Notes: a model not told the origin generated them from the sequence alone. A stretch of DNA of 64,000 nucleotides from Acidobacteriota bacterium (GCA_040752675.1 JBFMGF010000035.1:9852-73851); one strand, 5' to 3'; positions 1,552 to 63,433 are shown, counted from the stretch's first letter. Program-made: numbers and translations.

Positions 1552-2847
1552 ATGTCAATTCGAGTCGTCATAACGGGGCTGGGGATCATCTCTTCGATAG
1601 GGATTGGAAAAGATGAATTCTGGATGAACTCGCTTGCCGGAAAGTCCGGCGGGAAAAAGCTTGATTACCCCTGGATGAACGGGAATGTCTTTTACACCCA
1701 TATCGGAGCACCGGTTACCAATTTCAACCCGATCGATTTCAGCATTCTGGACAAGGAAATCAGCATCATCGATAAAGTCTCCGCGTTTGCGCTTGCAGCA
1801 GCTTATATGGCTCTTCTGGATGCCGGATTGCGACCAATGCTTTACGACGCCAAGAAGAGTTTCAACAGGATCGAAGGGATTGATCCGGAAAGGCTGGCTG
1901 TTGTCGTAGGCTCCGGGATCGGAGGGTTAACCACGACAGAGATCAGTCATGGACAGTGGAAAATGAATGCCAGCAGGAAGGGGGTCAAAAGGTATTCTCT
2001 GCCGATGCTGATCCCGAATGCACCTGCAGCACAGGTCGCCATGAAGTACCAGGCAAAGGCAGAATGCAAAGCGATCTCCACTGCCTGCGCTGCAGGCACA
2101 ATGGCCATCGGCGATGCTTACAAATTGATTAAAGCTGGCGAGGCAGATTATGCTCTCGCTGGAGGAGCAGAGGCCGCATTAAGTGATAACGATGGCTACG
2201 GGTTGATGGGTTTTGACCTCCTGAGCACGATGTCCACAAGGAACGATGATCCGGAACACGCCAGCCGTCCCTTCGATAAGAACCGGGACGGGTTCGTTCT
2301 GAGTGAGGGAGCCTCCATCCTTGTACTCGAGAGGCTGGAGAACGCCCTCGCGAGAGGTACCGGTATCTATGCGGAGATCATAGGATACGAGACTAACTGC
2401 GATGCTTATAGCATGATGATGCTGGAGCCGAACGCATCTCAGATCATAAGGTTGATGAAGAATCTCATCGGCAGGAACGGAGTCTCCATCGACGACATTG
2501 ATTACATCAATGCTCACGGTACATCCACGGTCCTCAACGACAAGATCGAGACATTAGCCATCAAAGAGGTTTTTGGTAAAAAGGCTCACGACCTGATTGT
2601 CACTTCCACGAAATCTATGACGGGGCATGCCATAGCAGCCTCTGGAGCCATCGAGGCCGCATCCACGGCTTTGACTATCAAGCATGGGAAGATTCCTCCG
2701 ACCATCAACTACGAGACACCCGATCCGGAGTGTGACCTGAACTATCTGCCCAACAGGGCGGCCGATAAGGAAGTGAGAGTGGCACTCAGCAATTCCTATG
2801 GATTCGGCGGCCATAACGCAAGCCTTCTCATAAAGAAATTCGAATGA
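1552..2847 (+). CDS. Beta-ketoacyl-[acyl-carrier-protein] synthase II (FabF family) paralog
   Basis: Catalytic Cys in ISTACAAG, His in YINAHGTST and His in STKSMTGH; C-terminal NSYGFGGHNASLL. Collinear with FabF along its full length, and not embedded in a fab cluster. Confidence 0.85.
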   Translation: MSIRVVITGLGIISSIGIGKDEFWMNSLAGKSGGKKLDYPWMNGNVFYTHIGAPVTNFNPIDFSILDKEISIIDKVSAFALAAAYMALLDAGLRPMLYDAKKSFNRIEGIDPERLAVVVGSGIGGLTTTEISHGQWKMNASRKGVKRYSLPMLIPNAPAAQVAMKYQAKAECKAISTACAAGTMAIGDAYKLIKAGEADYALAGGAEAALSDNDGYGLMGFDLLSTMSTRNDDPEHASRPFDKNRDGFVLSEGASILVLERLENALARGTGIYAEIIGYETNCDAYSMMMLEPNASQIIRLMKNLIGRNGVSIDDIDYINAHGTSTVLNDKIETLAIKEVFGKKAHDLIVTSTKSMTGHAIAASGAIEAASTALTIKHGKIPPTINYETPDPECDLNYLPNRAADKEVRVALSNSYGFGGHNASLLIKKFE

Positions 2848-31220: not shown

Positions 31221-32696
31221 TTGTTTTTGAGTGTTCGATGCATTAAAATTAAAAAAGGGAATGAGGGCAATAATCCTGTGATAAAACAAGATGAAGCTCT
31301 GGAACGAGTGGATAGAAGTCCAGGCAGGGAACTGACCAAATCGGAGCCGACTTTCAAAAAAAGCCTGCTGATAGCCTCCATTGTGTTTGCTGCTTTAATA
31401 CTGACCAATCTTGGAATGGTCGGCTATGTCATGTTCCGGCATCTGAGCAAGAGTAAGATCTATTCTGCCTTCATGATCTCCCGGGATTGCGCCGAAGACA
31501 TTGCGGATAAAGTCATCAAGCTGAGCCTCCAGCCCGATGGACTGAACTTCAATCTTCTTAGAAAAAATCAAGAGAGGCTGGAATCGTACGTGAGAAAGCA
31601 TATTGCGATGTCAGGCTACCTCTTCTACGTCGAGGTGAGGGATAATTTCAGCAACAGAATCATTGCGTTTGTAAGATCACAGAGGGTGGTCAACGGCTCG
31701 GGATACCATGAGGATAAAATAGAGTTCATCAATCAGACTGATGGTGAGGTGCCACCTGGTCAGGAACCTATGGAGAATCCGATCGTGACTGTTCCGGTCA
31801 GGATTGGTGGTGGTCGGGAGGGAGAAGTGAGGGTTGGGGTCTCCCAGCAGCGCATTGAAGAGGAGATAAAAAGTCTGAGAAGGGAACTAATCCTCAAGCT
31901 CTCCATAACCATCGGGATTAGCATCATTCTCCTCTTCATCGCTTTTCTCTATGTGATCAAGCTGCTGAACAAGACAAGAAGGCTTGAGGCGGAGGCACAG
32001 ACCGCCGATCGCCTTGCCTATGTCGGCACGCTGGCTTCCGGACTGGCCCATGAGATCAGAAACCCCCTGAACGCAATGAATATGAATCTACAGATGCTTG
32101 AAGAGGAGATCGGCGAGAAGAGCTTCGATGGAAGCGAAGAGTTCAATGAGCTCCTCAAGGGGATCAAGGGAGAGATAAACAGACTGGAAAGATTGGTCAA
32201 CAACTTCCTTGCCTATGCGAGGCCTCAGAAACTGAATCTTTCAGAGGGGGACATCAATGAGGCCGTAAGTGAAGTGGTTAGATTCCTGAAACCGGAGATC
32301 GAGCAGAAGAAGATCGATGTGAACCTGAATCTCGATCCATATCTCCCCTCCGTGGAACTGGACGAGCACAGGATCAAGCAGGCATTGATGAATATCTTGA
32401 TCAATGCCAAGCAGATATTAAAGGAGGGCGGGATCATCACTGTTACTACGCGGATGGGCTCAGAAGGAAGGGTGATCGTTGAGATTGCAGACAATGGCCC
32501 TGGCATGTCACAGGAGATGAAGAATAAGGTCTTCGACATCTTCTTCTCGACTCGGGGCGGTGGAACCGGTCTCGGGCTTCCAATCGCGCAGAAGATAATA
32601 GAATCTCACGGAGGTAAGATCGACCTTTGGTCGGAGCGGGATCACGGGACCAGGTTCACCATATTCCTGCCGCGAGTCCACGAAAAGGGAAGGTGA
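31221..32696 (+). CDS. Membrane-anchored sensor histidine kinase (HisKA + HATPase_c)
   Basis: H-box LAHEIRNPLNAM; N, G1 and G2 boxes (NILINAKQ, DNGPGM, GGGTGLGL); two predicted TM segments. The annotated TTG start is uncertain and an in-frame GTG near 31269 is possible. Confidence 0.8.
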   Translation: MFLSVRCIKIKKGNEGNNPVIKQDEALERVDRSPGRELTKSEPTFKKSLLIASIVFAALILTNLGMVGYVMFRHLSKSKIYSAFMISRDCAEDIADKVIKLSLQPDGLNFNLLRKNQERLESYVRKHIAMSGYLFYVEVRDNFSNRIIAFVRSQRVVNGSGYHEDKIEFINQTDGEVPPGQEPMENPIVTVPVRIGGGREGEVRVGVSQQRIEEEIKSLRRELILKLSITIGISIILLFIAFLYVIKLLNKTRRLEAEAQTADRLAYVGTLASGLAHEIRNPLNAMNMNLQMLEEEIGEKSFDGSEEFNELLKGIKGEINRLERLVNNFLAYARPQKLNLSEGDINEAVSEVVRFLKPEIEQKKIDVNLNLDPYLPSVELDEHRIKQALMNILINAKQILKEGGIITVTTRMGSEGRVIVEIADNGPGMSQEMKNKVFDIFFSTRGGGTGLGLPIAQKIIESHGGKIDLWSERDHGTRFTIFLPRVHEKGR

Positions 32697-32756
32697 TGAC
32701 TCCGCGATTTTTGGTGTCGAAAAGGCTCCCATCTGCGAATAGGAGTTTTTGAATAG

Positions 32757-34802
<2,046 letters not shown>

Positions 34803-34808
34803 TGTGGG

Positions 34809-36182
34809 GTGAAATCTGTGAGAGAAGAGGCAAAAATAATTCTTGTCGAGGACGAGGATTCCAATAGGGAGACCATGGCACGCGCCCTGAGAAAGACGGG
34901 GTATCATGTGAAGGACTTTTCACGTTCTGCAGAAGCGCTCGATTATCTCAGGAAAGGGGAAAACGTCTTCCTTGTCATAACGGATCTCATCATGCCGGAT
35001 ATGGATGGGATGGACCTTCTCAGGGAGATCAAAAAGTACAATGCCAGCATCGCCGTTCTCATGATAACAGGGCATGCCAGGATAGAATCTGCCGTCGAGG
35101 CGATGAAGAAGGGAGCGGAAGATTATCTTCAGAAGCCGATTGATCTCTTCGAATTGAGAAAGAGAGTCGGTGCCATCGTAGAGAAGAAGCTTCTCGAGAG
35201 GAAGGTGGAAGAGCTCAAAGAAAGACTGGGGGAGTTTACCTTTGAGAATATTATCGGAAAATCGACTCCGATGAGGGATGTCTTCAGGCAGATCAAGATG
35301 GTTGCCCCCACGAGGAGCAGCGTTCTTATCATTGGAGAGAGTGGAACGGGGAAGGAACTCATCGCCAATGCCATTCACGAGAACTCTCCCAGGAGAGGTG
35401 AACGCTTTCTGGCCCTCAACTGCGCTGCCATTCCTTTAGAGATTCTTGAAAGCGAACTCTTCGGGCATGAGAAAGGTTCTTTCACAGGAGCCATCGGTAG
35501 GAAGATCGGAAAATTCGAGTTGACGGACAGAGGGACGCTCTTCCTCGACGAGGTGGATTCGCTTCCAATGGAGATCCAGGTCAAACTGCTGAGAGCCCTC
35601 GAAGAGAAGGAATTCATGAGGGTAGGCGGCGCTGAGACGATCAAAATCGACACAAGAATTATCGCGGCGACGAAAATCGATCTAGAAAGAATGGTTGCAG
35701 ATGGAACATTCCGGGAAGACCTCTACTATCGTCTCAAGGTAGTAACCATCAAGATCCCTCCTCTGAGAGAGAGGAAGGAAGACATCCCCCTTCTCGTCAA
35801 CCATTTCCTCAAGAAGTTTTCCGAAGAAAACACGAGATCGGAGATAGTGAAGGTCAGTTCAGACGTGATGCTGGCCCTGATGGAGCACGAGTGGGAGGGG
35901 AATGTCAGGGAACTTAAAAATCTCATTGAAAGTCTGGTCGTCATGACCGATAAGCATGAGATCGGCTTTGAAGACCTTCCGGAAGATTACAGAAGAAAGG
36001 GAATCAAGGAACTGGAGGAGATGAGAATGACCAAAACGATACGGGAGGTAGAAAAAGAAGCCATACTCAAGGCGGTTGAGAAGGCCGGTGGGAACAGGAC
36101 ACGCGCCGCAGAGATGCTGGGAATGGGACTCAGGACCCTGTATCGTAAATTGAGGGAATATGAAAAAGAAGGCAGAAGCTGA
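34809..36182 (+). CDS. Sigma-54-dependent response regulator (NtrC family: REC + AAA+ + Fis-type HTH)
   Basis: Receiver (ILVEDED ... VITDLIMPDMDG), Walker A GESGTGKE, GAFTGA motif (GSFTGA), and a C-terminal HTH. Confidence 0.9.
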   Translation: MKSVREEAKIILVEDEDSNRETMARALRKTGYHVKDFSRSAEALDYLRKGENVFLVITDLIMPDMDGMDLLREIKKYNASIAVLMITGHARIESAVEAMKKGAEDYLQKPIDLFELRKRVGAIVEKKLLERKVEELKERLGEFTFENIIGKSTPMRDVFRQIKMVAPTRSSVLIIGESGTGKELIANAIHENSPRRGERFLALNCAAIPLEILESELFGHEKGSFTGAIGRKIGKFELTDRGTLFLDEVDSLPMEIQVKLLRALEEKEFMRVGGAETIKIDTRIIAATKIDLERMVADGTFREDLYYRLKVVTIKIPPLRERKEDIPLLVNHFLKKFSEENTRSEIVKVSSDVMLALMEHEWEGNVRELKNLIESLVVMTDKHEIGFEDLPEDYRRKGIKELEEMRMTKTIREVEKEAILKAVEKAGGNRTRAAEMLGMGLRTLYRKLREYEKEGRS

Positions 36183-36312
36183 GATCTGTGTCAAAAAGGC
36201 ACTGTCCGGATTCTATCGGCTGGGGGCATTTTATAACTAATTGATGATAAAAAAGATATATAAAATACCGCTAACATAAAAATGGTATAAGTTTTGCGAT
36301 TTATATGCAGCT

Positions 36313-36681
36313 ATGGAAAACCAGAGAATTCTCGTAGTTGATGATGACCCTTCCGTCCTTGATACTTACAGGAAGCTTCTCAGAAGATGTGGGTATATAG
36401 CCATGACTGCGGAAAATGGGACAGAGGTCCTCAGGGACCTTGAGAAATTCAGATCGGCCGGGCTTGTCATCCTCGATTACAAGATGCCAGTCATGGATGG
36501 GCTTACGCTTCTAGTCGAGATGAGAAAGATGAAGTTCCTTCCCAAAGTCATACTGATTTCCGCCTATCTGACCGATGAGATCATACGGAGAGCGGAAGTT
36601 CTGGGCGTGGCAAAAATATTCCATAAGCCAGTGGATGTGGTGAAATTGAAACAATCCATCAAGGAAGCCCTCGAGGCTTGA
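36313..36681 (+). CDS. Stand-alone response-regulator receiver (CheY-like), no output domain
   Basis: ILVVDDD ... VILDYKMPVMDG ... KVILISAY ... KIFHKP covers the conserved D, D, T and K positions in 122 aa. Confidence 0.8.
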   Translation: MENQRILVVDDDPSVLDTYRKLLRRCGYIAMTAENGTEVLRDLEKFRSAGLVILDYKMPVMDGLTLLVEMRKMKFLPKVILISAYLTDEIIRRAEVLGVAKIFHKPVDVVKLKQSIKEALEA

Positions 36682-36715
36682 TTATTATCTTTACTCTAAC
36701 TTCGGAGGATCAGGA

Positions 36716-38254
36716 ATGAACAAGAGATTTCAATTTATATTGCTTCTGTTGATTGTGGGCGTATCCATAATTTTTGGAATGGTCATCAATGGCATGGTGA
36801 ACAGGATCCCGGTAGCTTCGGCTGAAAGTAAGCTCTATTCGACGGCTCCGGATATGGCCATTCAGGCTCCAAGCTTTGCGGATATCGCCGAAAAGGCCAA
36901 TCCTGCTGTCGTGAGCGTCATAAAGTACTCCAAGAAACGGGTGATCGATGAGCGTTACTTTCCCTTAGATGACTTCATTTGGAGATTCTTTGGGATGCCT
37001 GAAAGACAGGATAGAAGAGAAGAGCAACGCCAACATTACCGGCGAAGGTCTCCTAGGCAGGAAGAGTTCGAACATGAGGATGGAGGCGGCTCTGGATTCG
37101 TCATCAGTCCGGATGGCTACATCCTGACCAACAATCACGTCACCGAGCACGCTACAAGGATCGAGGTCACCATGGAGAACGATGAAAAGTATGAGGCCAA
37201 GCTGATCGGCAGCGACCCTGAGATCGATGTCGCATTGATTAAGATCGAGCCCAGGAGAGCTCTTCCTGTCCTTCCTCTCGGAGACTCGGATAAGATTAGA
37301 GTGGGGGAATGGGTGGCGGCTATCGGCAATCCATACATGCTCAAGCATACAGTAACGGTAGGGGTGGTAAGTGCCAAGGGAAGAAGGAACTTGATGATGA
37401 TGAGCGATAGCCCCCTGGCGACGTTTATTCAGACAGATGCTGCCATTAATTTAGGGAACTCTGGTGGGCCTCTCCTCAACGCAAGAGGCGAGGTTATCGG
37501 CATCAATACTGCCATATATCGTGGTAACCTTGCAGAGGGGATAGGTTTTGCCATTCCGATAAATCAGGTGAAAGCGATTCTCGATCAGCTCAAGGCAAAA
37601 GGGAAAGTTTCCCGCGGCTATCTTGGTGTGGTCGTCCGAAGTGTCGATGAGAAGATCCAGGATTACTACAAACTTGGATCGAGAAAAGGTGCCTTTGTAG
37701 ATGCAGTCCAGCCAGGGTTGCCTGGAGATAAGGCTGGCATCAGAAAAGGGGACATTATCCTGAGTGTCGATGGAAAAGAGATCAAGGAAAGTCAGGACCT
37801 AGTTTCTGAGATCTCTTCGAGATCGGCCGGTGACAGAGTGAAACTCGAGATCTTCCGGGATGGGAAGGGGATGACCCTTGAAGTAAAACTTGGCGAGAGA
37901 GAAACAATTTCCGCGGAGAAGGGAGAAGAATATCCTGAAAAAGAAGAAGAGAGTGATTCTTATGATCGCTTTGGCATCGCGGTGGATAATCTTACCTCTG
38001 AGAACAGGTACTATTTTGAAATTGATGAGAGGGTCCAGGGTGTCGTCATCGTTGACGTGAAGAAGTTCAGCGATGCCGCGGACGAAGGCATCCAGGAAGG
38101 GCAGGTCATCTCGGAAGTGAATGAGGTCCGTGTGAAGAATGTTTCTGACTTCAACAGGGAGATCAGGAAGGTTGGCAAAGATGATGTTGTAAAGTTTCAG
38201 ATCATCCTCCAGGATGGAACTTCCCACATGATCTTCCTGAGGCCCTCTAGGTAA
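36716..38254 (+). CDS. Periplasmic serine endoprotease HtrA/DegP/DegQ (trypsin-like domain + 2 PDZ)
   Basis: Catalytic triad context TNNHV (His), DVALIKI (Asp) and GNSGGPLLN (Ser); signal anchor; two C-terminal PDZ domains. Confidence 0.9.
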   Translation: MNKRFQFILLLLIVGVSIIFGMVINGMVNRIPVASAESKLYSTAPDMAIQAPSFADIAEKANPAVVSVIKYSKKRVIDERYFPLDDFIWRFFGMPERQDRREEQRQHYRRRSPRQEEFEHEDGGGSGFVISPDGYILTNNHVTEHATRIEVTMENDEKYEAKLIGSDPEIDVALIKIEPRRALPVLPLGDSDKIRVGEWVAAIGNPYMLKHTVTVGVVSAKGRRNLMMMSDSPLATFIQTDAAINLGNSGGPLLNARGEVIGINTAIYRGNLAEGIGFAIPINQVKAILDQLKAKGKVSRGYLGVVVRSVDEKIQDYYKLGSRKGAFVDAVQPGLPGDKAGIRKGDIILSVDGKEIKESQDLVSEISSRSAGDRVKLEIFRDGKGMTLEVKLGERETISAEKGEEYPEKEEESDSYDRFGIAVDNLTSENRYYFEIDERVQGVVIVDVKKFSDAADEGIQEGQVISEVNEVRVKNVSDFNREIRKVGKDDVVKFQIILQDGTSHMIFLRPSR

Positions 38255-38331
38255 GCAGCTCCTTATAAAATTACTTAGAATAACTGAGAACCGGGAGGTG
38301 TTCCCTGGGAAAGGCGAAAGGGAAAGTTCTT

Positions 38332-39675
38332 GTGGTGGACGATGAGGATGACATCCTGTCCTCGCTCAGGATGATTCTCGAGTATGAGGGGTATCAGTTC
38401 ATCGCTGCCAGGAATGGGATGGAAGGGCTGGAGAGGGTGAAGGAAAATCCGGATCTGATCCTCCTCGACATCAAAATGCCGAGGATGGATGGTATGGAGG
38501 TCCTGACTCAGCTCAGAAGATCACATCCACTCATCCCCGTTGTCATGATCTCCGGGCACGGAACTATTGCGGCTGCCGTTGAAGCGACGAAGATAGGAGC
38601 CTACGATTTCATGGAAAAACCGCTTGAGAGGGAAAGAGTCCTTCTCATCATCAAGCATGCCATCCAGCAGAAGAGATTGAAGGAAGAAAACATCACTTTA
38701 AAAAAACACGAAGAGAACAGGTTCCGGATGATAGGCGAAAGCGGTGCCATGAAGAGGCTCAAGGAAGACATCGCAAAGGTAGCGGGGACGAATGCAACTG
38801 TCCTTATAACCGGTGAGAGCGGCACAGGGAAGGAGCTTGTTGCAAGGACAATCCACAGGCAGAGCTCAAGGCAGGACAGGGATTTCATCAAGGTCAACTG
38901 TGCCGCCATTCCCGAGGAACTGATAGAGAGCGAGCTCTTCGGGCATGAGAAGGGAGCCTTTACGGGTGCTCACAGGGAGCAGATAGGAAAGTTCGTTCAG
39001 GCAGATGGCGGGACCATCTTTCTCGACGAGGTGGGGGACATGACTCTGAAAACGCAATCTAAGGTCCTGCGGGTCCTCCAGGACGGGGAGGTTGAGCCTG
39101 TCGGTTCGGCGCGGAGCTTCAACGTCGACGTACGGGTGATCGCGGCAACCAACAAAGACCTTCCGAGAGAGATCGAGAAGGGAACCTTCCGCGAGGATCT
39201 CTACTTCCGGCTGAACGTCGTCCCGATCCATTGTCCTCCTCTCAGGGAGCGAAGCGATGACATCCCTCCTCTCGTCAATTACTTCATGGAGAATTTCTGC
39301 AGTGAGAACAACTATAAGGTCAAGGAGATCACACAGGAAGCAATGAAGGCATTGATGGAACTTCCCTGGCGGGGCAATATCAGGGAACTGAAAAGCAGCA
39401 TCGAACGGCTCATCATCATGAAGACGCGAAATGTTATCGATGCGGATGACATTACCGAAGAGATCCTCATCAAAACAGCACCGGAGAGGCTATCCCTCGA
39501 GTCCGCAAAGACGCTTAAGGATTTTAAAGATGTTTCGGAGCGGGCATTCCTCGTGGCGAAACTCAGGGAAAACAACTGGAACATCGCCAGAACGGCCAAG
39601 GAGATTGGGATGCAGCGCTCCAACCTTTACAAGAAGATGGAGATCTATGGCATCTCTCGTGAAAAGGACAGGTAG
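38332..39675 (+). CDS. Sigma-54-dependent response regulator (NtrC family), second copy
   Basis: Receiver (LLDIKMPRMDG), Walker A GESGTGKE, GAFTGA, C-terminal HTH. The annotated GTG start leaves the receiver N-terminus short, so the start is uncertain. Confidence 0.9.
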   Translation: MVDDEDDILSSLRMILEYEGYQFIAARNGMEGLERVKENPDLILLDIKMPRMDGMEVLTQLRRSHPLIPVVMISGHGTIAAAVEATKIGAYDFMEKPLERERVLLIIKHAIQQKRLKEENITLKKHEENRFRMIGESGAMKRLKEDIAKVAGTNATVLITGESGTGKELVARTIHRQSSRQDRDFIKVNCAAIPEELIESELFGHEKGAFTGAHREQIGKFVQADGGTIFLDEVGDMTLKTQSKVLRVLQDGEVEPVGSARSFNVDVRVIAATNKDLPREIEKGTFREDLYFRLNVVPIHCPPLRERSDDIPPLVNYFMENFCSENNYKVKEITQEAMKALMELPWRGNIRELKSSIERLIIMKTRNVIDADDITEEILIKTAPERLSLESAKTLKDFKDVSERAFLVAKLRENNWNIARTAKEIGMQRSNLYKKMEIYGISREKDR

Positions 39676-46084: not shown

Positions 46085-46756
46085 ATGATTAGCTTTCATC
46101 ATGTTTCCAAGAGATACGGACCACACATCGGCGCGCTCAACGATGTAACCTTCTCCGTGGAGAAAGGGGAGTTCGTCTTCATCACTGGTCCGAGCGGGGC
46201 AGGAAAGACGACGCTTCTGCGATTGATCTTCAGAGGGGAAACTCCCACGGAAGGGCAGATCCTGGTTGACGGGAAAAATGTGACCGCCATCCCTGACTCC
46301 AGGATCCCGTACATTCGAAGGACCATCGGGGTAGTCTTTCAGGACTTCAAGCTCATCGAAAGAAAGGACGTCCTGGATAATGTCTCCTATGTCTTGAGAA
46401 TACTGGGGATATCGAGCAAGGAGATGAGGAGGAAGGCTTATAACGCGCTGCGTATCGTCGGGCTCAATCATCGCCTTCATCAGTATCCCAAGATGCTATC
46501 GGGCGGGGAACAACAGAGAGTTGCCATAGCGCGGGCCATCGCCAATGAGCCCATGATCCTCCTTGCCGATGAACCGACCGGGAATCTCGATCCAGACCTT
46601 GCCCTGGAGATCATGCAGCTATTCAAAGATATCAATGCGCGGGGAACTACGATCATCGTGGCTACGCATGACAGAGACCTGGTCCGGCGGATGAACAAGC
46701 GTGCCATTCTGATCGAGAAGGGACGGATCCTCGAGGATAGAAAGGTTGCAATTTGA
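46085..46756 (+). CDS. ftsE: Cell division ATP-binding protein FtsE
   Basis: Walker A GPSGAGKTT, ABC signature LSGGEQQRVAIARA and Walker B ILLADEPTGNLD. Confidence 0.9.
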   Translation: MISFHHVSKRYGPHIGALNDVTFSVEKGEFVFITGPSGAGKTTLLRLIFRGETPTEGQILVDGKNVTAIPDSRIPYIRRTIGVVFQDFKLIERKDVLDNVSYVLRILGISSKEMRRKAYNALRIVGLNHRLHQYPKMLSGGEQQRVAIARAIANEPMILLADEPTGNLDPDLALEIMQLFKDINARGTTIIVATHDRDLVRRMNKRAILIEKGRILEDRKVAI

Positions 46757-47655
46757 AATATCTCGAGAACTTGAAGTACTTTATTTCTGAGTCCATTTAC
46801 AACCTATGGTATGCGAAAGGTGTAAATTCCATCTCGATCGCCACCATCGCCATCTCCCTTTATATAATAGGGATCTTTCTCCTACTCATGGCGAACGCCA
46901 CACTCTTCTTCAACGCTCTCTCGGAAAAAGCGCAGATCGACATCTATCTGAAGGACGATATCTCGGATTCCGAGAGGGAAGAGATCGCTCTCTTGCTGGA
47001 AGAGGATGGTATCGTAAAATCATTTCAGTTCATCCCAAAGCCTGAAGCCCTGCAGAGGTTCAAAAAGGATTTCCCTGACCTGAAGGATATTCCCGAGGAA
47101 CTTGAAGACAATCCCATACCGGCTTCTTTCGAGGTTGCCTTGTCAGAGACCGGGAACTCCGAGGACACAATATCCAGTTTTATCAGGAAGTTCTCCCGGT
47201 TAGATGGTATCGAGGACATACAGTGCGACAGGGAATGGATAAAGAAACTGGGTTCCTATCTGAATCTTATGAAGGGCGGAGGCATCCTCCTCGGAGGAAT
47301 CCTCTATTTCGCGGCTGCCTTTACCATATCAAGTGTCATCAGGCTCAACGTCTATTCCCGCAGGGATGAGATAGAGATCATGCGACTGGTGGGAGCGACC
47401 AATAGCTTCATCAGGGGACCCTTCCTTGCCGAGGGAGTTCTTCAGGGATTGATTGCCGCCTTCCTATCAGTAGCTGCTCTTTATGGAACATACTGGTTCT
47501 TCATCGCTTACTCCAGAGAGAGCTACAGCATCCTCCTGGGGTTCTTTACATCCACATTCATCACCCTTCCCCAGTTTCTGCTCGTCGTTGTGTCTGGAAT
47601 GGCCATCGGGCTGGCGGGAAGCTTTCTCTCCATTCGCCGCTTCCTCACCATCTGA
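46753..47655 (+). CDS. ftsX: Cell division permease FtsX
   Basis: Four-TM permease with a periplasmic loop after TM1; translationally coupled to ftsE (ATGA overlap). Confidence 0.85.
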   Translation: MKYLENLKYFISESIYNLWYAKGVNSISIATIAISLYIIGIFLLLMANATLFFNALSEKAQIDIYLKDDISDSEREEIALLLEEDGIVKSFQFIPKPEALQRFKKDFPDLKDIPEELEDNPIPASFEVALSETGNSEDTISSFIRKFSRLDGIEDIQCDREWIKKLGSYLNLMKGGGILLGGILYFAAAFTISSVIRLNVYSRRDEIEIMRLVGATNSFIRGPFLAEGVLQGLIAAFLSVAALYGTYWFFIAYSRESYSILLGFFTSTFITLPQFLLVVVSGMAIGLAGSFLSIRRFLTI

Positions 47656-47756: not shown

Positions 47757-50642
47757 TTAGAATTCGTATGCGATGTAGAAATCGGTGCGGAAACCCGACT
47801 CCGACGATTTGATATCCGTCCTCTTGGAGAACATCCAGTTAAACTGCAGTGGGCCCAGGAAGAAGAAATTGAACCCCAGTCCGTAGGAAGCATGACCATC
47901 TACAAGCCTCTTCTCCTCGCTATCGTAAAAATCGAACTTTCTGTACATGAACGTTTCATGATCGTAGATCCAGCCGTCCTTGAACCAGGCGGTTCCGATG
48001 TCGGCGAAGACGACGCCACGGATGGATCGGATCGCTCCAAAGGGGAATTTCAGCTCATCGATGAGGGGAAATCTAAACTCAAAATTTGTGAAAGCGATTC
48101 TTGTTCCAAAGAACTCCCTGAAATCGTAACCCCGGATCTGGTTCAACCCCCCCACTCCATAAACGTTTGCTCCATCCCCATCGCTGACTATTCCGGCAAG
48201 GCGCCAGGCAAAAAGCGAGCGTGAGGTGATGTGGGCATAGCTCCTGAAATCGATGGAATATTCTTTAAAGGAACGCGCATCTCCCATCGCAGGCGCATAT
48301 GTTGCGGAGACCTCGAATCGCTTCCCGTGATAAGCGCCGAATTCCTTGAAGCGGGTCGTGTCTCCATTGAAGCTGAATCCGACTATGGGGAAAGTCTCCG
48401 AGAACTTGTTCAGATTGACTTCGTCAGTCATGGGATCCCGGGTGGGGTAGATCTGACTTCGGTAGATGACGCCGCCGAACCCTTCCACGCGGTAGTATCG
48501 GTTGAAGGGCCACTGGATGATTCCATGAGCGGCAGATACGCGGGACTCGACCCGGTACAACCCAGTGTAATCCGACAGGACAAAGAAATCATGGAAATCA
48601 AAGACACGGAAGGCATAGTCGAACCGATGCTTCAGATTAAGATAGAGAACATCAAGATTGGAGAAATCCCGGATCGAATAGAACCGTGCTCGGATCCTGT
48701 GGTCCCCGAGGAGATCAGTGAAGATGACATCGGCATTACTCAGGATGCTTCCATCGTTTGCAACGCCGACCGTTATCTCCGGAGCCTCAACATCCCACTT
48801 CAGTCGCCTGTATCGGCTCTTTTTCTCTTCATCGAGGCTGAGCGATAAAGGTGGCTTGAACATTTCTTCTTCAATGGTGGTGCTTGGCTTTTCTTCCTGC
48901 TGGATGATCTCCACGGGTTCCTTGATCTCCATCCTGTAGAGACGGAACGTCCCGCGGAAGAGAGCCGCGAACGTGAGCGCTTCCTTTCCCTCCTGGTCGG
49001 CGATCTGGACAGGCGTGAAGGCGCCGCCAAGAAGGTCGGTGTGCCTTTGCATCTCTCCCGTATCGAGGTTTAGAGAGTAAACGTTGAAGATGCCGTTCGC
49101 GGTTCGATCCGAAGAGAAAAAAACAAGTTTTCCGTTCCTGGAGAAGGATGGCTGGATGTCATTCCCCGGCCCGATTGTCAGTTGAGTCTTTCTCGTCGGG
49201 TCGTCCATGTCAAGGAGAAAGATTTTCTCGTTCTCTCCGACTCTCCGGTTGTAGAGGATCTTCCTGCCATCACTGGAGTAGGAGGGATTCGAATCATAGT
49301 ACTCATCATCGGTGATATTCTTGGTCTCTTTGGTATCGAGATCGATCTGGAAGATATCCCAGACCCCATTCCTGTTCCCGCTGAACAGAATCCGGTTCCC
49401 CTCCGGAGAGAAAGAGGGGGAAGCCCCCATATCGACTTCGAGCTTCAGGTTGTGAACCTTCTCTCCAGTCAGAGCATCGTAGACGAGCAGCGGACGGTAA
49501 TTCTCCTTCCTGACGAAAAAGGAAACGAGGTCTCCCTTCGGCGACCAGGAAAGGTCCTTCTTGCCCGAGAACGCCTCCGTGGTGATGTACTCATAATTGT
49601 TTGTGAATCCCCTGGTTAGATTCCTTACGAGGGAGCCGTCGTTGGCAGAGATGACGACGACATCGAGTTCCTCTTTCGGGTTGGCAAGGGCAGCGACAAG
49701 CTCACCGGAAGGAGAGATCGTTGGTGAGAAGGTAAAAACCTGGGGCTTCTTGAAACCGATTTCTTTTCCGTACTCTCCTGGTTCATTTTTTTCAAGAAGG
49801 ATGGGGAAATATTTCTGTCTCAGATACTTCTGGAATCTCCTGTTGAATTCGTCCATCTCCAACCCGAAGGACTCTTTTATTGCCTTCTGAATGTTGTTGG
49901 TGAGCAAGACCTTCTTGTATTCGTACAGGAAGGTCCTCACTCCCTCTTTCCCGAAGCTCTTCTCCATGAAGTCGAAGATGGCGTGTCCGAAGCGGTAAGT
50001 CAGGAATGATAAGACATTCAGTTTTTCGATCTCCGGGATGATGTTGTTGACGACGGCATCCCGGATGATCATCCGGTCCATGTTGTCTTCATCCTGCGCG
50101 AGGTAGCTTGCCAGGCCTTCGAAGAGCCAGAGGGGAGGCTGGGACCGGATGGCGCGCCCCAGGTTCCCCTCGTAAAAGATGCTGAATTCGAATATGTGGA
50201 CTATCTCATGCGTCAGGACCTTAAACATCCTGTCTCTGGGCGTATCGATCGGGATGACGACCCGGTTCTGGAACGGTTCGGCAAAGGCTCCTACTGCTTC
50301 CGGGATCTCCTGCATCATCACGTTGGTCTGCTCGAATTCGGCATGAGTCTTATAGTAGATAAGGGGAATCTTGAAATTGATCTCGTGGTCGAGGTTTTTG
50401 CTCAACTGCAAGTAGGCGCTCTCCGCGTAGCCTACCATCTCCTGAAGAAACTCCTCTTCTTCCGGGTAGTAGTAGACGTCGAAGTGAGGGGAAGAGTAGT
50501 AATGCCATTCGAACTTCTGATAGGTGATCTTGTTCTTGTAAAAGGAGAGGATCGGATCTGGAAAAACAAGAGAGATGAAAACAAAGACCGACATGAAAAG
50601 CAAGGATCTCCACCATGATTTCATGGGAACCTCCCGGTTCAT
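47757..50642 (-). CDS. Multidomain outer-membrane protein: signal peptide, peptidase-MA-like (HExxH) domain, PD40/TolB-like beta-propeller, and a C-terminal Omp85/D15-type beta-barrel
   Basis: LTHEIVHIFEF (HExxH) followed by LWLFEGLA. Repeated PD40 units (SPSFSPEGNRILFSGNRNGVWDIFQIDLDT, NPSYSSDGRKILYN, QPSFSRNGKLVFFSSDRT). C-terminal GGLNQIRGYDFREF ... FRTDFYIAYEF is typical of Omp85 barrels ending in Phe. Confidence 0.6.
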   Translation of the reverse strand: MNREVPMKSWWRSLLFMSVFVFISLVFPDPILSFYKNKITYQKFEWHYYSSPHFDVYYYPEEEEFLQEMVGYAESAYLQLSKNLDHEINFKIPLIYYKTHAEFEQTNVMMQEIPEAVGAFAEPFQNRVVIPIDTPRDRMFKVLTHEIVHIFEFSIFYEGNLGRAIRSQPPLWLFEGLASYLAQDEDNMDRMIIRDAVVNNIIPEIEKLNVLSFLTYRFGHAIFDFMEKSFGKEGVRTFLYEYKKVLLTNNIQKAIKESFGLEMDEFNRRFQKYLRQKYFPILLEKNEPGEYGKEIGFKKPQVFTFSPTISPSGELVAALANPKEELDVVVISANDGSLVRNLTRGFTNNYEYITTEAFSGKKDLSWSPKGDLVSFFVRKENYRPLLVYDALTGEKVHNLKLEVDMGASPSFSPEGNRILFSGNRNGVWDIFQIDLDTKETKNITDDEYYDSNPSYSSDGRKILYNRRVGENEKIFLLDMDDPTRKTQLTIGPGNDIQPSFSRNGKLVFFSSDRTANGIFNVYSLNLDTGEMQRHTDLLGGAFTPVQIADQEGKEALTFAALFRGTFRLYRMEIKEPVEIIQQEEKPSTTIEEEMFKPPLSLSLDEEKKSRYRRLKWDVEAPEITVGVANDGSILSNADVIFTDLLGDHRIRARFYSIRDFSNLDVLYLNLKHRFDYAFRVFDFHDFFVLSDYTGLYRVESRVSAAHGIIQWPFNRYYRVEGFGGVIYRSQIYPTRDPMTDEVNLNKFSETFPIVGFSFNGDTTRFKEFGAYHGKRFEVSATYAPAMGDARSFKEYSIDFRSYAHITSRSLFAWRLAGIVSDGDGANVYGVGGLNQIRGYDFREFFGTRIAFTNFEFRFPLIDELKFPFGAIRSIRGVVFADIGTAWFKDGWIYDHETFMYRKFDFYDSEEKRLVDGHASYGLGFNFFFLGPLQFNWMFSKRTDIKSSESGFRTDFYIAYEF

Positions 50643-58284: not shown

Positions 58285-60123
58285 ATGATGAGACCGAACT
58301 TCAGAGATTTTCTGGAAGAGAATGTCATCGTCTTCGACGGGGCGATGGGAACGCAGCTCTATGCTAAGGGGATCTACATCAACAAATGTTTCGATGAGCT
58401 TAATGTGTCCGCTCCGGATCTGGTGAGGGAAGTCCACCGGGAATATATCAAGGTGGGGGTGGATGTCATCGAGACGAATACCTTTGGCGCTAACAGGGTC
58501 AAGCTTGGCAAGCATGGATTGGAGAAGTACGTAACGCGGATTAACTACGAAGGAGTGCAGATCGCCCGGAAGGAAGGGGGAGAAGAAATATTCGTAGCCG
58601 GCTCTATAGGACCTCTTGGGATCAGGATAGAACCATGGGGTCCCACCTCGTTTGACGAAGCCAGAGAGTTCTTCAGGGAGCAGGCAGAAGGACTTCTTCA
58701 GGGAGGGGTCGATCTATTCGTCATAGAGACGTTTTACGATCTCGAAGAGTTGCACCAGGCGATTCTAGCGGTGAAGGATCTCTGTGACCTACCCATCATC
58801 GCACAGATGACTCTGGAAGACGACGGGAACAGCCTCGAAGGAGTCCCTCCGGAAGAGTTCACTATGGTAATCGATGGCTGGGGAGTCGATGCCGTGGGTG
58901 TGAACTGCAGTGTCGGTCCCCAGGTCATGCTTCAGGCTATCGAGAAGATGTGCAAGGTAACCGCGACCAAGCTTTCTGCTCAACCCAATGCGGGAAAACC
59001 TAGGAACGTCGAGGGGAGAAACATCTACCTCTGCTCCCCGGAATACATGGCAGAGTATGCGAAGAGATTCATCCTCAACGGAGTGAAGGTTGTGGGTGGA
59101 TGCTGCGGGACGACACCTCAGCACATCGCCGCCATCAGGAGAGCAGTGAAAGCGGTACAGCCGACGAGGAGGAAGACAGTAGCCATACCTGCCGCGATAG
59201 AGAAGAAAATGGATGTCGAGGTGATAGCTAAAGAAAAGAAGTCAGAACTTGCAAGGAAGATAACAGAAAAAATATTTGTCAAAGCCGTTGAGATAGTCCC
59301 TCCACGTGGCTGTGATACCAGGAAGGCTGTTGAGGGCGCAGTTTACCTGAAGGAGTCCGGCGTTGATGCGATCAATATCCCGGACGGACCGCGGGCAAGC
59401 GCCAGGATGAGTCCCTTGTCTGTTGCCTATATCATCGAGGGAGAGGTTGGGATTGAAACGATCCTGCATTACTGCTGCCGGGACAGGAATCTCCTCGGAA
59501 TGCAGTCAGACCTGCTCGGGGCTTACTCTATGGGAATCAGGAATCTCCTCATCATCACCGGGGATCCTCCCAAGCTGGGAACCTATCCTGACGCGACTGC
59601 GGTTTTCGATGTGGACTCCATCGGCCTGACCAACATGGTCTACAGGCTCAACCATGGCCTGGACCTTGGTGGAAATCCAATTGGAAAGCCCACAGGCTTT
59701 CATATTGGTGTTGGCGTCAACCCGGGTGCCATTGATCTGAAAAAGGAGATAAGCCGCTTGGAATGGAAGGTGGGTGCGGGTGCGGAGTTTGCCATCACAC
59801 AGCCCGTCTTCGATGTTGAGATGCTTAAATCGTTCCTCCACATGATTTCCCATGTTCGCATCCCGATACTTGCCGGAATATGGCCTCTGACAAGTTTGAG
59901 GAATGCGGAGTTCATGAACAATGAGGTGCCCGGCACTCAGGTCCCTCACGAGATCATGGAGCGGATGAGGAAAGCAGGTTCTTCAGAGGCGGCAAGACGC
60001 GAGGGGATCGCAATCGCCCAGGAATGCCTCCTTGCCATTCGCAACATTGTAGAAGGAGTCCAGGTGAGCACTCCAGCCGAGCGCTACGAGACGGCAGTCG
60101 AAGTGCTTTCCGCACTAAAATAA
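58285..60123 (+). CDS. Bifunctional homocysteine S-methyltransferase (MetH N-terminal-like Hcy-binding domain) / 5,10-methylenetetrahydrofolate reductase (MetF-like) fusion
   Basis: N-terminal S-methyltransferase domain (VIVFDGAMGTQLY; zinc-binding GGCCGTTP) and a C-terminal MTHFR-like TIM-barrel region. Confidence 0.75.
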   Translation: MMRPNFRDFLEENVIVFDGAMGTQLYAKGIYINKCFDELNVSAPDLVREVHREYIKVGVDVIETNTFGANRVKLGKHGLEKYVTRINYEGVQIARKEGGEEIFVAGSIGPLGIRIEPWGPTSFDEAREFFREQAEGLLQGGVDLFVIETFYDLEELHQAILAVKDLCDLPIIAQMTLEDDGNSLEGVPPEEFTMVIDGWGVDAVGVNCSVGPQVMLQAIEKMCKVTATKLSAQPNAGKPRNVEGRNIYLCSPEYMAEYAKRFILNGVKVVGGCCGTTPQHIAAIRRAVKAVQPTRRKTVAIPAAIEKKMDVEVIAKEKKSELARKITEKIFVKAVEIVPPRGCDTRKAVEGAVYLKESGVDAINIPDGPRASARMSPLSVAYIIEGEVGIETILHYCCRDRNLLGMQSDLLGAYSMGIRNLLIITGDPPKLGTYPDATAVFDVDSIGLTNMVYRLNHGLDLGGNPIGKPTGFHIGVGVNPGAIDLKKEISRLEWKVGAGAEFAITQPVFDVEMLKSFLHMISHVRIPILAGIWPLTSLRNAEFMNNEVPGTQVPHEIMERMRKAGSSEAARREGIAIAQECLLAIRNIVEGVQVSTPAERYETAVEVLSALK

Positions 60124-60146
60124 AGTAGCCGAGGCAGGTTGCCTGT

Positions 60147-61262
60147 CTATTGGTCGGGATCTAGCCGCTTCTGGTCGGAGTCACTGAGCTCAAGGAGGGA
60201 CGAGATGGCGTAGTCGAGCTTGTCAAATTTCTTCTGAGCTTCGTCGAAGCTCTTCTGGGAATTGCTAATATGCTTTCCGAGGACTCTGAAATCTTCCAAC
60301 GATTTGTTCAGCTGAGTTCTCAATCCTGATATCTTTGTGAGGATCTCTTTGGCCTTTACCTCGATCTCCATCCCCCTTAATCCGAGGAGGATAACCTGTA
60401 GGTAAGCATAGAACGAGTTTGGCGAGACGGGAATGACTCTTCTCGAGATGGAATATTCGAACACTCCTTTCTCGCTCCCAGGCTCAGCGCTTCGGATGAT
60501 GGTCTCGTAATAAACGTTCTCGGCAGGGATGTACATCAGGGCGAAATCGTACGTCCCCTCATCGGGAAGGATGTATTTGGAAGAGATGTTTTCAATATGT
60601 TTCCTGATATCCTTGAGGAAATCTTTCCTGTATCGCTCCTGCTGGCTGGATTCCGTTTCGGAGGCCATCCTTCTGAAATTTTCCAGAGGAAATTTAGCAT
60701 CAATGGGTACAATCTTCTCTCCGGCCTTGATGACTGCATCCACCTTTTCTCCGCTCCTGAAGGTATGCTGGAGCTCGTAATAGGAGGAAGGCATGATCTG
60801 GGCAAGAAGGTCTTCGAGAAAGAGCTCTCCCATCCCTCCCCTCAACTTCGGGGCACTCAGAATCTCCTGAAGGCTGGCAATGTCCTTTCCAACATCGAAG
60901 ACCCTTTTGACCGCTTCGTCCACAGCTCCCAGCTGCTTGTGGACATCCATCATAGCCCTGGTGGTTTCCTCCAACTTGTGGTCCATAGTCTTTGTGGTCG
61001 CATCGAGTTTCTGGTCCATAGCCGTTCTAGTGCTGGAGATCTGTTCCATGAGTGCTTTGTTGATGTCGCGGAAGGATCGGGAGGCTTCAGCCAAGCTGTC
61101 GAAAAGCTGCCTTCTCAGACCATCCATCTGACCCTGCATGGAGAGAAGAAGCTCTGCCGTCCCGCCTTCCCTTCCCGTCTTTCGACCCTGCCAGATAAGC
61201 AGAAAGATGAGGAAAACGATGATTGTCGAAAGAAGGAAGATGATGACAAGAGTCATGTCCAT
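60147..61262 (-). CDS. rmuC: DNA recombination protein RmuC
   Basis: N-terminal TM, long coiled-coil, and a C-terminal RmuC nuclease-like domain (GEKIVPIDAKFPLE ... YIPAENVYYE). Confidence 0.8.
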   Translation of the reverse strand: MDMTLVIIFLLSTIIVFLIFLLIWQGRKTGREGGTAELLLSMQGQMDGLRRQLFDSLAEASRSFRDINKALMEQISSTRTAMDQKLDATTKTMDHKLEETTRAMMDVHKQLGAVDEAVKRVFDVGKDIASLQEILSAPKLRGGMGELFLEDLLAQIMPSSYYELQHTFRSGEKVDAVIKAGEKIVPIDAKFPLENFRRMASETESSQQERYRKDFLKDIRKHIENISSKYILPDEGTYDFALMYIPAENVYYETIIRSAEPGSEKGVFEYSISRRVIPVSPNSFYAYLQVILLGLRGMEIEVKAKEILTKISGLRTQLNKSLEDFRVLGKHISNSQKSFDEAQKKFDKLDYAISSLLELSDSDQKRLDPDQ

Positions 61263-61296
61263 CTGTAATTTTTAATGAATGATGCTTTCAATTATA

Positions 61297-61926
61297 TTAC
61301 TTGAGTTTCTCGCTAAAGAACGATTCGATCTTGAGGAAAATGGAGTCTTCCACATTCATGGCTTTATAGACCACGTCGTCCGCACCGAGCTTTTTAAGAT
61401 CATTCCAGGTCTTCCCGTACATCTCCATCTCATCTTTCGATGTATATATGATAACAGGACATTTTTTTGGAGCCTGCTTCAGGAGGTCTCTTCCATCTTC
61501 ATCTTTAAGAATGAGATCGAGAAGGACGATATCCACCTTCTCTTTGCCGAGGATTTCCAGAGCCTCGTTGACAGTGGTCGCGCAACAAACTCTGTATCTT
61601 TTTTCCAGGATCTCCCGAGTGAAGTTAATGAAAAACTCCTGATCTTCCACGAGGAGGATCGTCCTTTTATCCTCTTCTTTTTCTTTTGCAGAAGGTCGAA
61701 GAGGAGTTATTTTGAAAGAGAAACCGCATTTCGGGCACTGCACAGTCATGAGGGTCGAATCCGATTCCGATGTCCCTTTTTTCAGATCTTCCTGGATAAG
61801 GTGCTTCTTTATGGAGATGATGAACCCGCAGGTGCGACAGGTGATCCTGCCGCCCTTCTCGGGGATCCTCTCCGGATCGAGGTTGTATTTCTCGTCGCAT
61901 CTCGGGCATATAATGGTTGCTTTCAT
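61297..61926 (-). CDS. Response-regulator receiver with N-terminal MJ0042-type zinc-ribbon(s), no DNA-binding output domain
   Basis: CPRCDEKY ... CRTCGF and CPKCGF zinc ribbons. Receiver motifs ILLVEDQ, VLLDLIL, IIYTSK and VVYKAM. Confidence 0.7.
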   Translation of the reverse strand: MKATIICPRCDEKYNLDPERIPEKGGRITCRTCGFIISIKKHLIQEDLKKGTSESDSTLMTVQCPKCGFSFKITPLRPSAKEKEEDKRTILLVEDQEFFINFTREILEKRYRVCCATTVNEALEILGKEKVDIVLLDLILKDEDGRDLLKQAPKKCPVIIYTSKDEMEMYGKTWNDLKKLGADDVVYKAMNVEDSIFLKIESFFSEKLK

Positions 61927-62771
61927 GGATCACCCCCGACATTCTGTTCAAGATAATCATAAGGGTCAATGCAATCATTCTCCACTCTTATTTCAAAGTG
62001 GAGGTGAGGGCCGGTGGCATTTCCGCTCGTCCCTACCTGTGCGATGGTCTCCCCCCGTGAGACCTCATCCCCTTCCTTGACCAGATTGATGGAGTTGTGG
62101 GCGTAAACAGTGGAAGTTCCATCCTGGTGATTGATGATGATCATCCTGCCATATCGCTGCTCATGTCCGCTGAAGACGACTATACCATCCCTTGATGCAA
62201 CAACAGCCGTTCCATAAGGAGCCATGATGTCAATCCCGGAGTGGTAATGACCGTTGCGCCTGGCGCCGAAGCTTGAACCGATCTTCCCTGAAACAGGCCA
62301 GGTGAATTTCTCCCCGCTGTAGGAGATGGTCCCCATTTTTCCCGGGATGAGGATCTCAAGCTGTTTCTCCGCGCCAGGGATGAAGATGACCTGCCCTGCC
62401 TGGATCTTTGCAGGATCCTTGATGCCGTTGATCTCTGCCAGTTCTTGCACATTAATGCCGTATGTTTTTGCGATCCTGTAAAGGTTTTCGGCTTTTCTGA
62501 CTATGTGGAAGATACCCCGATTTTTATCGCCCTGCTTTTCTTCGGCTCGTTCCTGCCTTTCTGGTTCATCCGATCTCGTCGCTTCCTCGGGACTTGCGCT
62601 TTGCTGCTGTAAGGCTTTGCTCTTTCTCTTCATCTCGTGTGTAGCGCAGGAAGAAGAAAAAAGGAGAGAAGAGATCAAAAAGAGCGTTACACTGTGTTTT
62701 CCTGAGAGCATCTTCATGAGCATCATACTCAAGATTCCGATGAACCAGACCAGAAAGATCGGTGAAAACAT
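61923..62771 (-). CDS. LysM-domain M23-family (LytM-type) peptidoglycan endopeptidase
   Basis: LysM (IFHIVRKAENLYRIAKTYGINVQELAEINGI); M23 zinc motifs HYHSGIDI and STVYAHNS; N-terminal hydrophobic anchor. Confidence 0.85.
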   Translation of the reverse strand: MFSPIFLVWFIGILSMMLMKMLSGKHSVTLFLISSLLFSSSCATHEMKRKSKALQQQSASPEEATRSDEPERQERAEEKQGDKNRGIFHIVRKAENLYRIAKTYGINVQELAEINGIKDPAKIQAGQVIFIPGAEKQLEILIPGKMGTISYSGEKFTWPVSGKIGSSFGARRNGHYHSGIDIMAPYGTAVVASRDGIVVFSGHEQRYGRMIIINHQDGTSTVYAHNSINLVKEGDEVSRGETIAQVGTSGNATGPHLHFEIRVENDCIDPYDYLEQNVGGDP

Positions 62772-62821
62772 AAGTATAACATCAAATCAGTCTCAGATGC
62801 GGGCTTTTCCAGTATAATGAT

Positions 62822-63433
62822 ATGCAAATGTTAGGGAAAGAGATATGGAGTATCATACTGGCAGCGGGTAAATCCGAAAGGATGGGAAGCTGTAAACCCC
62901 TGCTCACCATTGCAGGGACGACGTTTATCGAACATCTCTTCACCGCTTTTAAAGATTCTGACATCGGAGAGAACCTGAGAATTATCATCGGATTCCAGGC
63001 GGAGAAGATCCTATCCAGCACGTCCATCCCGGAGAGATTTTTTATCTTGAACGAGAACTATGAAGGAGGCCAGTTGTCATCTCTAAAAGTGGGAATAGAA
63101 GCACTTAAATATTTGGAGCCAGATGGGATTCTTGTGCATCCCGTGGATCATCCTCTCCTTAAGGTAATAACCATCAATGCTCTGCTTCAGGCTTTCAATG
63201 AAAAAGAGAAACTGATCGTTGCGCCACGGTACAGGGGAGAGAGGGGAAGGCCTGTAATTTTTTCCTGGAAGCTCATTCCCGAAATTTTATTGCTTTCTTC
63301 TGATTCCAAGCCGAGAGATATCATTTCTAGGCATCAGGAAGAAATGTTCCTTCTTGACGTTGATGATGAGGGGATTCTTCTTGGAATCAACACACCCGAG
63401 GATTATCAAAAGGTGTTAAAAAATGCTCAATGA
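62822..63433 (+). CDS. MobA-like NTP-transferase domain protein (molybdenum cofactor guanylyl/cytidylyltransferase family)
   Basis: ILAAGKSERMGSCKPLL N-terminal nucleotide-binding signature; ~200 aa. Confidence 0.6.
   Translation: MQMLGKEIWSIILAAGKSERMGSCKPLLTIAGTTFIEHLFTAFKDSDIGENLRIIIGFQAEKILSSTSIPERFFILNENYEGGQLSSLKVGIEALKYLEPDGILVHPVDHPLLKVITINALLQAFNEKEKLIVAPRYRGERGRPVIFSWKLIPEILLLSSDSKPRDIISRHQEEMFLLDVDDEGILLGINTPEDYQKVLKNAQ

Follow-up and report, generated by a model that had tools for sequence, protein, structure and literature searches.

A clade-limited pair of overlapping genes in Acidobacteriota joins an NlpD-like M23 lipoprotein to a zinc-ribbon response regulator

Can a response regulator that stays in the cytoplasm control a peptidoglycan hydrolase whose gene overlaps its own? 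The question is raised by a 64,000-nucleotide stretch of DNA from an Acidobacteriota bacterium (GCA_040752675.1, JBFMGF010000035.1:9852-73851; this whole stretch is called the window below), where a gene for a LysM-M23 peptidase overlaps a gene for a response regulator composed of a zinc ribbon and a receiver domain (ZnR-REC). The original prediction had seen in this pair a phosphorylated, output-less receiver exerting direct protein-level control over the hydrolase. Our analysis led to another reading, to which we give roughly even odds (about 0.5): the genes would form an operon for a competent NlpD-like lipoprotein and an adaptor-type regulator, the latter served by an unlinked kinase and acting through its ribbon and/or the alpha4 face of its receiver on a cytoplasmic partner.

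Open reading frame (ORF) calling and Pfam searches placed the M23 gene, the regulator gene and rmuC as three consecutive ORFs on the minus strand (Table 1). The stop codon of the M23 gene and the start codon of the regulator gene share ATGA (...GAT CCA TGA, with ATG AAA in the +1 register), and the purine-rich GGGGGTGA lies directly 5' of it; judged from the sequence, the two elements together are a translational-coupling arrangement. The predicted 4-bp overlap with a 209-aa protein was thus found, and rmuC followed the pair directly, as had also been stated, with 34 bp between the regulator stop and rmuC. No terminator-like site was seen on the minus strand between these two genes in a promoter/terminator scan, and rmuC is probably co-transcribed with the regulator gene, the M23, ZnR-REC and rmuC genes probably forming a small operon. 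The scan, which covered 59900..63100, gave counts that were not above those of shuffled sequence (4 vs 2.5±1.6 and 3 vs 3.3±2.1), and it was uninformative on an internal promoter for the regulator gene. Upstream of the M23 gene, Pfam identified a divergent gene for a MobA-like nucleotidyltransferase at 62822..63433. There was no histidine kinase gene next to the pair; the sole one found in the window (31221..32696) is 30 kb off.

The LysM and peptidase domains of the M23 protein were both recovered as predicted, the peptidase domain with 117.5 bits against a cutoff of 28.7. Its metal-binding and catalytic set is intact (H177-S-G-I-D181, H225 and H256-L-H258), and a residue-by-residue alignment showed that the HxxxD, H225 and HxH positions carry the same residues as the M23 family peptidase chain 9gy1, whereas three of them are Asn, Asn and Gln in the degenerate DipM (7qrl). 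Because the zinc and catalytic residues are all present, the protein is by its sequence most likely a genuine peptidoglycan endopeptidase of NlpD/DipM architecture. The protein does not resemble a degenerate amidase activator, all metal ligands being kept. Pfam found a single LysM and no coiled-coil domain, and against the NCBIfam equivalog models of DipM, ActS, NlpD, MepM and EnvC the protein stayed below the cutoff every time (NF041208 for DipM, 133.8 vs a cutoff of 740; NF050804, 116 vs 900; the ActS model, 118 bits vs 375; the NlpD model NF008123, 100 bits vs 311). In locus L086 a homologous M23 gene stands after pcm, the place that nlpD takes in E. coli, which speaks for a housekeeping cell-wall lipoprotein; the M23 gene is an ordinary NlpD-like housekeeping gene.

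An N-terminal element had been predicted for the M23 protein and is indeed there, but instead of a membrane anchor it is the signal peptide of a lipoprotein, with Cys42 at its end (K20..K25-H26-SVTLFLISSLLFSSS-C42/ATHE), which means that the protein is exported. A lipobox-type Cys was present in 16 of the 16 M23 homologues inspected (LVGC/A, LSGC/A, FASC/A and LISC/S among them), and the lipoboxes of homologues became clearer when an upstream start was used, for example MVRAARAGWGGGALLVVCLVGC/ATL. The longest M23 ORF starts 15-20 codons 5' of the likely true start, which is probably one of Met16/17/19/21 and would give a normal signal peptide, MMLMKMLSGKHSV-TLFLISSLLFSSS-C. With the later start, the intergenic region between the M23 gene and the divergent MobA-like gene grows from 50 bp to about 100 bp. 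Two paralogous genes for apolipoprotein N-acyltransferase (Lnt) are found in the window, at 2844..4484 (+) and 7095..9527 (-), the second encoding 810 aa with a long C-terminal TPR extension; the presence of two Lnt genes fits a diderm that makes mature lipoproteins.

The regulator was 100% identical to an NCBI protein named "MAG: response regulator [Acidobacteriota bacterium]", where MAG stands for metagenome-assembled genome. Its AlphaFold2 (AF2) model had a mean predicted local distance difference test score (pLDDT) of 88.6 and a predicted template modelling score (pTM) of 0.65, and it laid the protein out as ribbon (residues 1-40), helix (41-49), low-confidence linker (pLDDT <60), hairpin (60-73) and receiver (89-207). 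Since the pTM is only 0.65 against a pLDDT of 88.6, and since the linker scores below 60, the model suggests that the ribbon is flexibly tethered to the rest of the protein. Pfam recognised no DNA-binding domain, in agreement with the original prediction, and the AF2 model accounts for all 209 residues. A signal peptide was likewise not found in the regulator, nor was any hydrophobic or membrane segment, and from this we infer that it is cytoplasmic.

The receiver domain is complete, as had been claimed. The Foldseek search of the PDB with the regulator model matched the receiver part alone, to the receivers of PmrA, BfmR and RR468 (template modelling score about 0.84, root-mean-square deviation about 2.0), and returned no match to the ribbon. 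In the 15 closest family members E94, D95, D137, T162 and K188 do not vary, and over an alignment of 55 family sequences the conservation of D137 and K188 is 90% or more. The phospho-acceptor Asp is therefore in place, and the receiver of the window regulator has an intact site, at which it would be phosphorylated. Two readings of the sequence depart from the usual receiver: Val185 stands at the aromatic switch, and after K188 there is Ala/Gly, not Pro. The alpha4 region carries a conserved patch specific to this family (D165, E166, Y170, G171 and W174). The closest low-GC (guanine plus cytosine) relatives of the window regulator, at 47% identity, are those of L079 (4310..4897) and L080 (1945..2532), which have Lys for E94 (LLVKDE vs LLVEDQ) and Ser for T162; the L010 regulator has Gln in place of K188.

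Two CxxC...CxxC ribbons had been predicted ahead of the receiver. The first is complete: Zn_ribbon_4 (PF13717) matched with E 2e-14 and 53.6 bits against a cutoff of 30.3, its C7, C10, C30 and C33 are invariant in the 55 sequences, and AF2 builds it from four strands (3-6, 13-16, 26-29 and 36-39). Sequence searches of the PDB matched it to 7zok (E 1e-3), which is the ribbon of GltJ/AgmX, and to the 49-residue chain 2nb9 (E 0.05), which we take from its sequence to be the ZitP ribbon. ZitP, a member of PF13719, binds PopZ (PMC5182065), and the GltJ ribbon binds an internal linker and MglB (PMC11135422). As a general class, zinc ribbons are also capable of DNA or RNA binding (PMC11135422). By analogy with these two proteins, the ribbon is a plausible protein-binding module, and the regulator would then not be output-less; what holds of that term is the lack of a DNA-binding output. 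The net charge of the ribbon, counted from the sequences, is about +4 in the window regulator and about +2 in members from Polarisedimenticolia.

The second predicted ribbon was reduced to one pair of cysteines, C64 and C67, in an orphan CPxCG hairpin. C64, P65 and C67 are invariant and F71 nearly so in the 55-sequence alignment, and about 80 family representatives showed the same order of two N-terminal CxxC motifs and then one CxxC just ahead of the receiver, none of them with a further CxxC that could serve this knuckle as second Cys pair. C156 was considered as a third zinc ligand and rejected, because it is Phe in a clade (clade B, see below) that retains the knuckle. A His after the knuckle Gly is common in the family and is not found in the window regulator. 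An intermolecular zinc site at the knuckle is possible.

These properties put the membrane between the two products, and the genes are therefore probably linked by shared expression. We propose that the first product is a Sec/Lol-exported, lipid-anchored LysM-LytM peptidase and the second a soluble, cytoplasmic, stand-alone response regulator, whose Asp137 would be phosphorylated by an unlinked histidine kinase and which would relay the signal by binding to other proteins, either with its N-terminal ribbon of the ZitP/GltJ type, with the strongly conserved alpha4 face of the receiver, or with both. The mature enzyme and the regulator would never touch, and the overlap of the genes would ensure that they are transcribed together and translated in a coupled way, so that timing and dosage are shared. 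A link between the target of the regulator and division or envelope growth would be a further step of the proposal.

Conservation of the pair was then analysed. A word-seeded search gave 15 full-length regulator matches, and an exhaustive profile search gave 89 cluster representatives (E <= 1e-30, clusters at 50% identity); the last profile search added few further members and no further taxonomic names. All named sources of the family were Acidobacteriota MAGs, Polarisedimenticolia among them. Loci were taken from genome contigs, from metagenome contigs (searched with an alignment narrower than the 55-sequence one) and from exact-protein look-ups, and M23, the regulator and RmuC were mapped on each. 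The M23 gene lay directly upstream of the regulator gene in 15 of 22 distinct assessable loci, with regulator identities of about 32-66%, so the gene pair is conserved beyond the window. With this and the intact phospho-acceptor, neither of the two outcomes named in advance as refuting the original prediction was obtained. In 11 of these 15 loci the genes overlap by 4 bp (window, L001-3, L007, L009, L010, L030, L032, L037, L038 and L087); L079, L080 and L083 have a gap of 13-18 bp instead, and the junction in L035 was left unscored, its M23 gene being cut by the contig end. A neighbour-joining tree of the regulators had four deep clades, and the M23-linked state occurred in two of them, with the 4-bp overlap retained in both and in genomes from about 48% to about 70% GC, which argues for selected co-expression.

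The regulator of clade B stands divergent from greA and ahead of ccmE-ccmF-ccmH, with a UbiA-like prenyltransferase and a GT2 glycosyltransferase also in the surroundings and no M23 gene within 4-6 kb. Clade B regulators have Phe at the C156 position and a one-residue insertion after the phospho-acceptor. In clade C, there is a 4-bp overlap between the stop of the regulator gene and the start of serS, the gene for seryl-tRNA synthetase (L006, 1308..; L008, 6729..). The reverse check started from M23 homologues at 49-62% identity (L079-L086) and found the regulator next to them in L079, L080 and L083. L081 and L082 have the same flanking synteny (M16, M16 divergent from M23, then rmuC and a methylenetetrahydrofolate reductase (MTHFR) fusion), and M23 is followed there by rmuC without the regulator; tblastn detected no regulator remnant in the M23-rmuC spacers (L081, 4256..4385; L082, 4265..4509), and by sequence these two are cases of recent regulator loss or relocation. 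M23 homologues in three other contexts (L084-L086), at 49-51% identity, also stand without the regulator. RmuC, a conserved neighbour for part of the clade, was found downstream in L009, L038, L039, L079, L080, L083 and L087, and a wider block is conserved, consisting of rmuC, a gene of 241-250 aa, OmpA, VWA and the MTHFR fusion. The pairing is thus limited to certain clades, close relatives can do without it, and it sits within a block that rearranges slowly.

Several of these observations weigh against the reading that we prefer. Two deep clades have the regulator without M23, in the housekeeping contexts of greA/ccm and serS, and the regulator is missing between M23 and rmuC in the two otherwise syntenic relatives L081 and L082, so co-expression with M23 is not essential to either gene. 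The conservation of the whole block could have produced the adjacency by slow rearrangement alone, and members of the L079, L080 and L010 type, with their substituted active-site residues, may be atypical or pseudo-receivers that are not phosphorylated. It is from such facts that a reading by inherited synteny draws its strength, in which the regulator serves general cytoplasmic signalling (e.g. polarity, cell cycle or stress) and its place after M23 is functionally meaningless. Long-range synteny is kept even for unrelated opposite-strand genes, as this reading would have it, and the regulator clades beside greA/ccmEFH or serS, the M23-rmuC order of L081 and L082 and the M23 homologues of other genomes that lack the regulator all agree with it. 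However, a 4-bp overlap that is held in two deep clades over so wide a range of GC exceeds the mere persistence of a neighbourhood, and we regard synteny alone as a serious but rather unlikely explanation. Control across the envelope by an indirect route, where the regulator, once phosphorylated, attaches from the cytoplasmic side to a membrane complex (FtsEX, or a part of the divisome or elongasome) that positions or activates M23, is less probable still, and we would call it unlikely. The conserved pair with its translational coupling, the docking of ZitP- and GltJ-type ribbons on scaffold or machinery proteins, and the ftsEX genes encoded in the genome would all suit such control, and PMC12802240 offers a precedent in single-domain regulators that directly bind and activate envelope enzymes. 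But the conserved unit encodes no membrane partner, ftsEX is unlinked and 14 kb off, an EnvC-like coiled coil is missing from the M23 protein, which, with its active site intact, does not obviously need an activator, and L081 and L082 dispense with the pairing.

A bolder form, in which the ZnR-REC proteins make up a so far undescribed class of adaptor response regulator in Acidobacteriota and the phosphorylated protein docks through its ribbon on an inner-membrane division or elongation complex and gates the activity or placement of the co-translated periplasmic M23 lipoprotein, the knuckle being one half of an intermolecular zinc site formed on receiver dimerisation, is speculative and, to our mind, decidedly unlikely. 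The original idea that the phospho-receiver itself binds the M23 enzyme and gates peptidoglycan cleavage is scarcely credible, the adjacency, the conserved overlap and the intact phospho-acceptor notwithstanding. All members inspected have M23 as an exported lipoprotein, and the regulator has neither export signal nor membrane segment, so direct control of cleavage is topologically implausible, and contact would be feasible with the unfolded M23 precursor only; the absence of the pairing from two of the four deep clades and from L081 and L082 weakens this claim further. Autoregulation is also very improbable, that is, a ribbon that binds nucleic acid and lets the regulator control transcription or translation of its own operon. 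Zinc ribbons in general have this capacity (PMC11135422), and one regulator clade is divergent from greA, but the characterised ribbons of the ZitP/GltJ subtype bind proteins, the ribbon here is only mildly basic in both the window and Polarisedimenticolia, and Pfam recognises no DNA-binding domain. We therefore keep the operon of shared expression, with an adaptor-type regulator and an NlpD-like lipoprotein, as the reading preferred.

Table 1 Features of the M23/ZnR-REC locus in the window and groups of regulator loci
Feature	Position	Strand	Basis
NlpD-like LysM-M23 (LytM) lipoprotein gene, most likely endopeptidase	61923..62771	-	Longest ORF, 282 aa; Pfam LysM and Peptidase_M23
Signal peptide with lipobox, ending at Cys42 (LLFSSSC/ATHE)	62646..62771	-	Read from sequence; lipobox Cys of homologues
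LysM peptidoglycan-binding domain, residues 89-132	62376..62507	-	Pfam PF01476, E 3.6e-14
M23/LytM catalytic domain, residues 176-270	61962..62246	-	Pfam PF01551, E 3e-34; residue alignment
ATGA stop/start overlap of M23 and ZnR-REC genes	61923..61926	-	4 bp, read from sequence
ZnR-REC response regulator gene, 209 aa	61297..61926	-	ORF; Pfam Zn_ribbon_4 and Response_reg
ZitP/GltJ-type four-Cys zinc ribbon, residues 5-36 (C7, C10, C30, C33)	61819..61914	-	Pfam Zn_ribbon_4, Zn_ribbon_5
Orphan CPxCG beta-hairpin, residues 60-73 (C64, P65, C67, F71)	61708..61749	-	Alignments; AF2 strands 60-63 and 70-73
Receiver domain, Pfam residues 90-193, fold 89-207	61348..61659	-	Pfam PF00072 (Response_reg), E 1.9e-15
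Phospho-acceptor D137	61516..61518	-	Receiver alignment
rmuC, 371 aa	60147..61262	-	Pfam RmuC PF02646, E 8.8e-54
M23-linked regulators, 15 distinct proteins			Window, L001, L002/3, L007, L009, L010, L030, L032, L035, L037, L038, L079, L080, L083, L087
Clade B, 5 distinct proteins, greA(-) divergent from regulator, then ccmE-ccmF-ccmH			L004, L005, L028/29, L031, L036
Clade C, 2 distinct proteins, regulator then serS, without M23			L006, L008

Elsewhere in the window, ftsE and ftsX were found as predicted, at 46085..47655 (+), with ftsE above its NCBIfam cutoff and ftsX at 249.5 vs 255 bits. No EnvC-like gene follows them; the next gene is convergent (47757..50642, -) and encodes 961 aa with TolB-like beta-propeller and Omp85-like matches. 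A gene at 58285..60123 (+) encodes a 612-aa fusion of homocysteine S-methyltransferase and MTHFR, and this fusion is conserved as a neighbour in L081-L083. Genes for signalling and stress form a cluster at 31221..39675 (+), which contains the histidine kinase gene mentioned above, an NAD-dependent DNA ligase gene and genes for two NtrC-type sigma-54 activators (34809..36182 and 38332..39675) with an HtrA/DegP-like PDZ protease between them.

Literature searches found nothing on a ZnR-REC regulator or on a pair of M23 and a receiver. To our knowledge, there is hardly any cell biology for the phylum Acidobacteriota. Should two-component signals indeed reach envelope remodelling through the regulator, this would be a third logic beside the ATP-driven FtsEX-EnvC system and the transcriptional control of wall hydrolases by WalKR, and peptidoglycan cleavage driven by a phosphorelay would run parallel to FtsEX-EnvC. 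The likeness to FtsEX-EnvC lies in cytoplasmic information that would steer a periplasmic LytM factor, and ftsEX is in the same window; the differences are that the M23 protein has no EnvC-type coiled coil and is unlinked to ftsEX, that a receiver takes the place of the ABC ATPase, and that the unit encodes no transmembrane transducer.

With NlpD, DipM and ActS the M23 protein shares export and the order of a LysM followed by a C-terminal LytM/M23 domain, and with NlpD in particular the lipoprotein signal, the order of signal, LysM and LytM, and the place of a homologue after pcm. It differs from all three in scoring far under their equivalog cutoffs, and from Caulobacter DipM in having one LysM where DipM has multiple repeats and in retaining all the zinc and catalytic residues, which in DipM are lost. 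NlpD and EnvC have also lost these residues of the LytM domain.

The regulator resembles CheY, DivK, CpdR and Myxococcus EpsW, receivers with an intact site and without DNA-binding output for which action by protein-protein contact is expected (PMC12802240). It differs from such stand-alone regulators in its added N-terminal ribbon and knuckle, in Val185 at the aromatic switch and in Ala/Gly instead of Pro after K188. With ZitP of Caulobacter and GltJ/AgmX of Myxococcus it shares the N-terminal cytoplasmic ribbon of about 40 residues with CxxC-19-CxxC spacing and the flexible linker that follows. We know of no PopZ or MglB in Acidobacteriota. The ribbons of ZitP and GltJ are attached to a membrane protein (a transmembrane segment with DUF3426, or GYF with a transmembrane segment), whereas that of the regulator is joined to a soluble receiver by way of a half-ribbon hairpin. 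The family is thus new in two respects, the fusion of a ZitP/GltJ-type ribbon to a receiver and the unexplained invariant half-knuckle, and as a compact, uncharacterised regulator family that combines a polar-scaffold-type zinc ribbon with a receiver it widens the known uses of the ZitP/GltJ ribbon.

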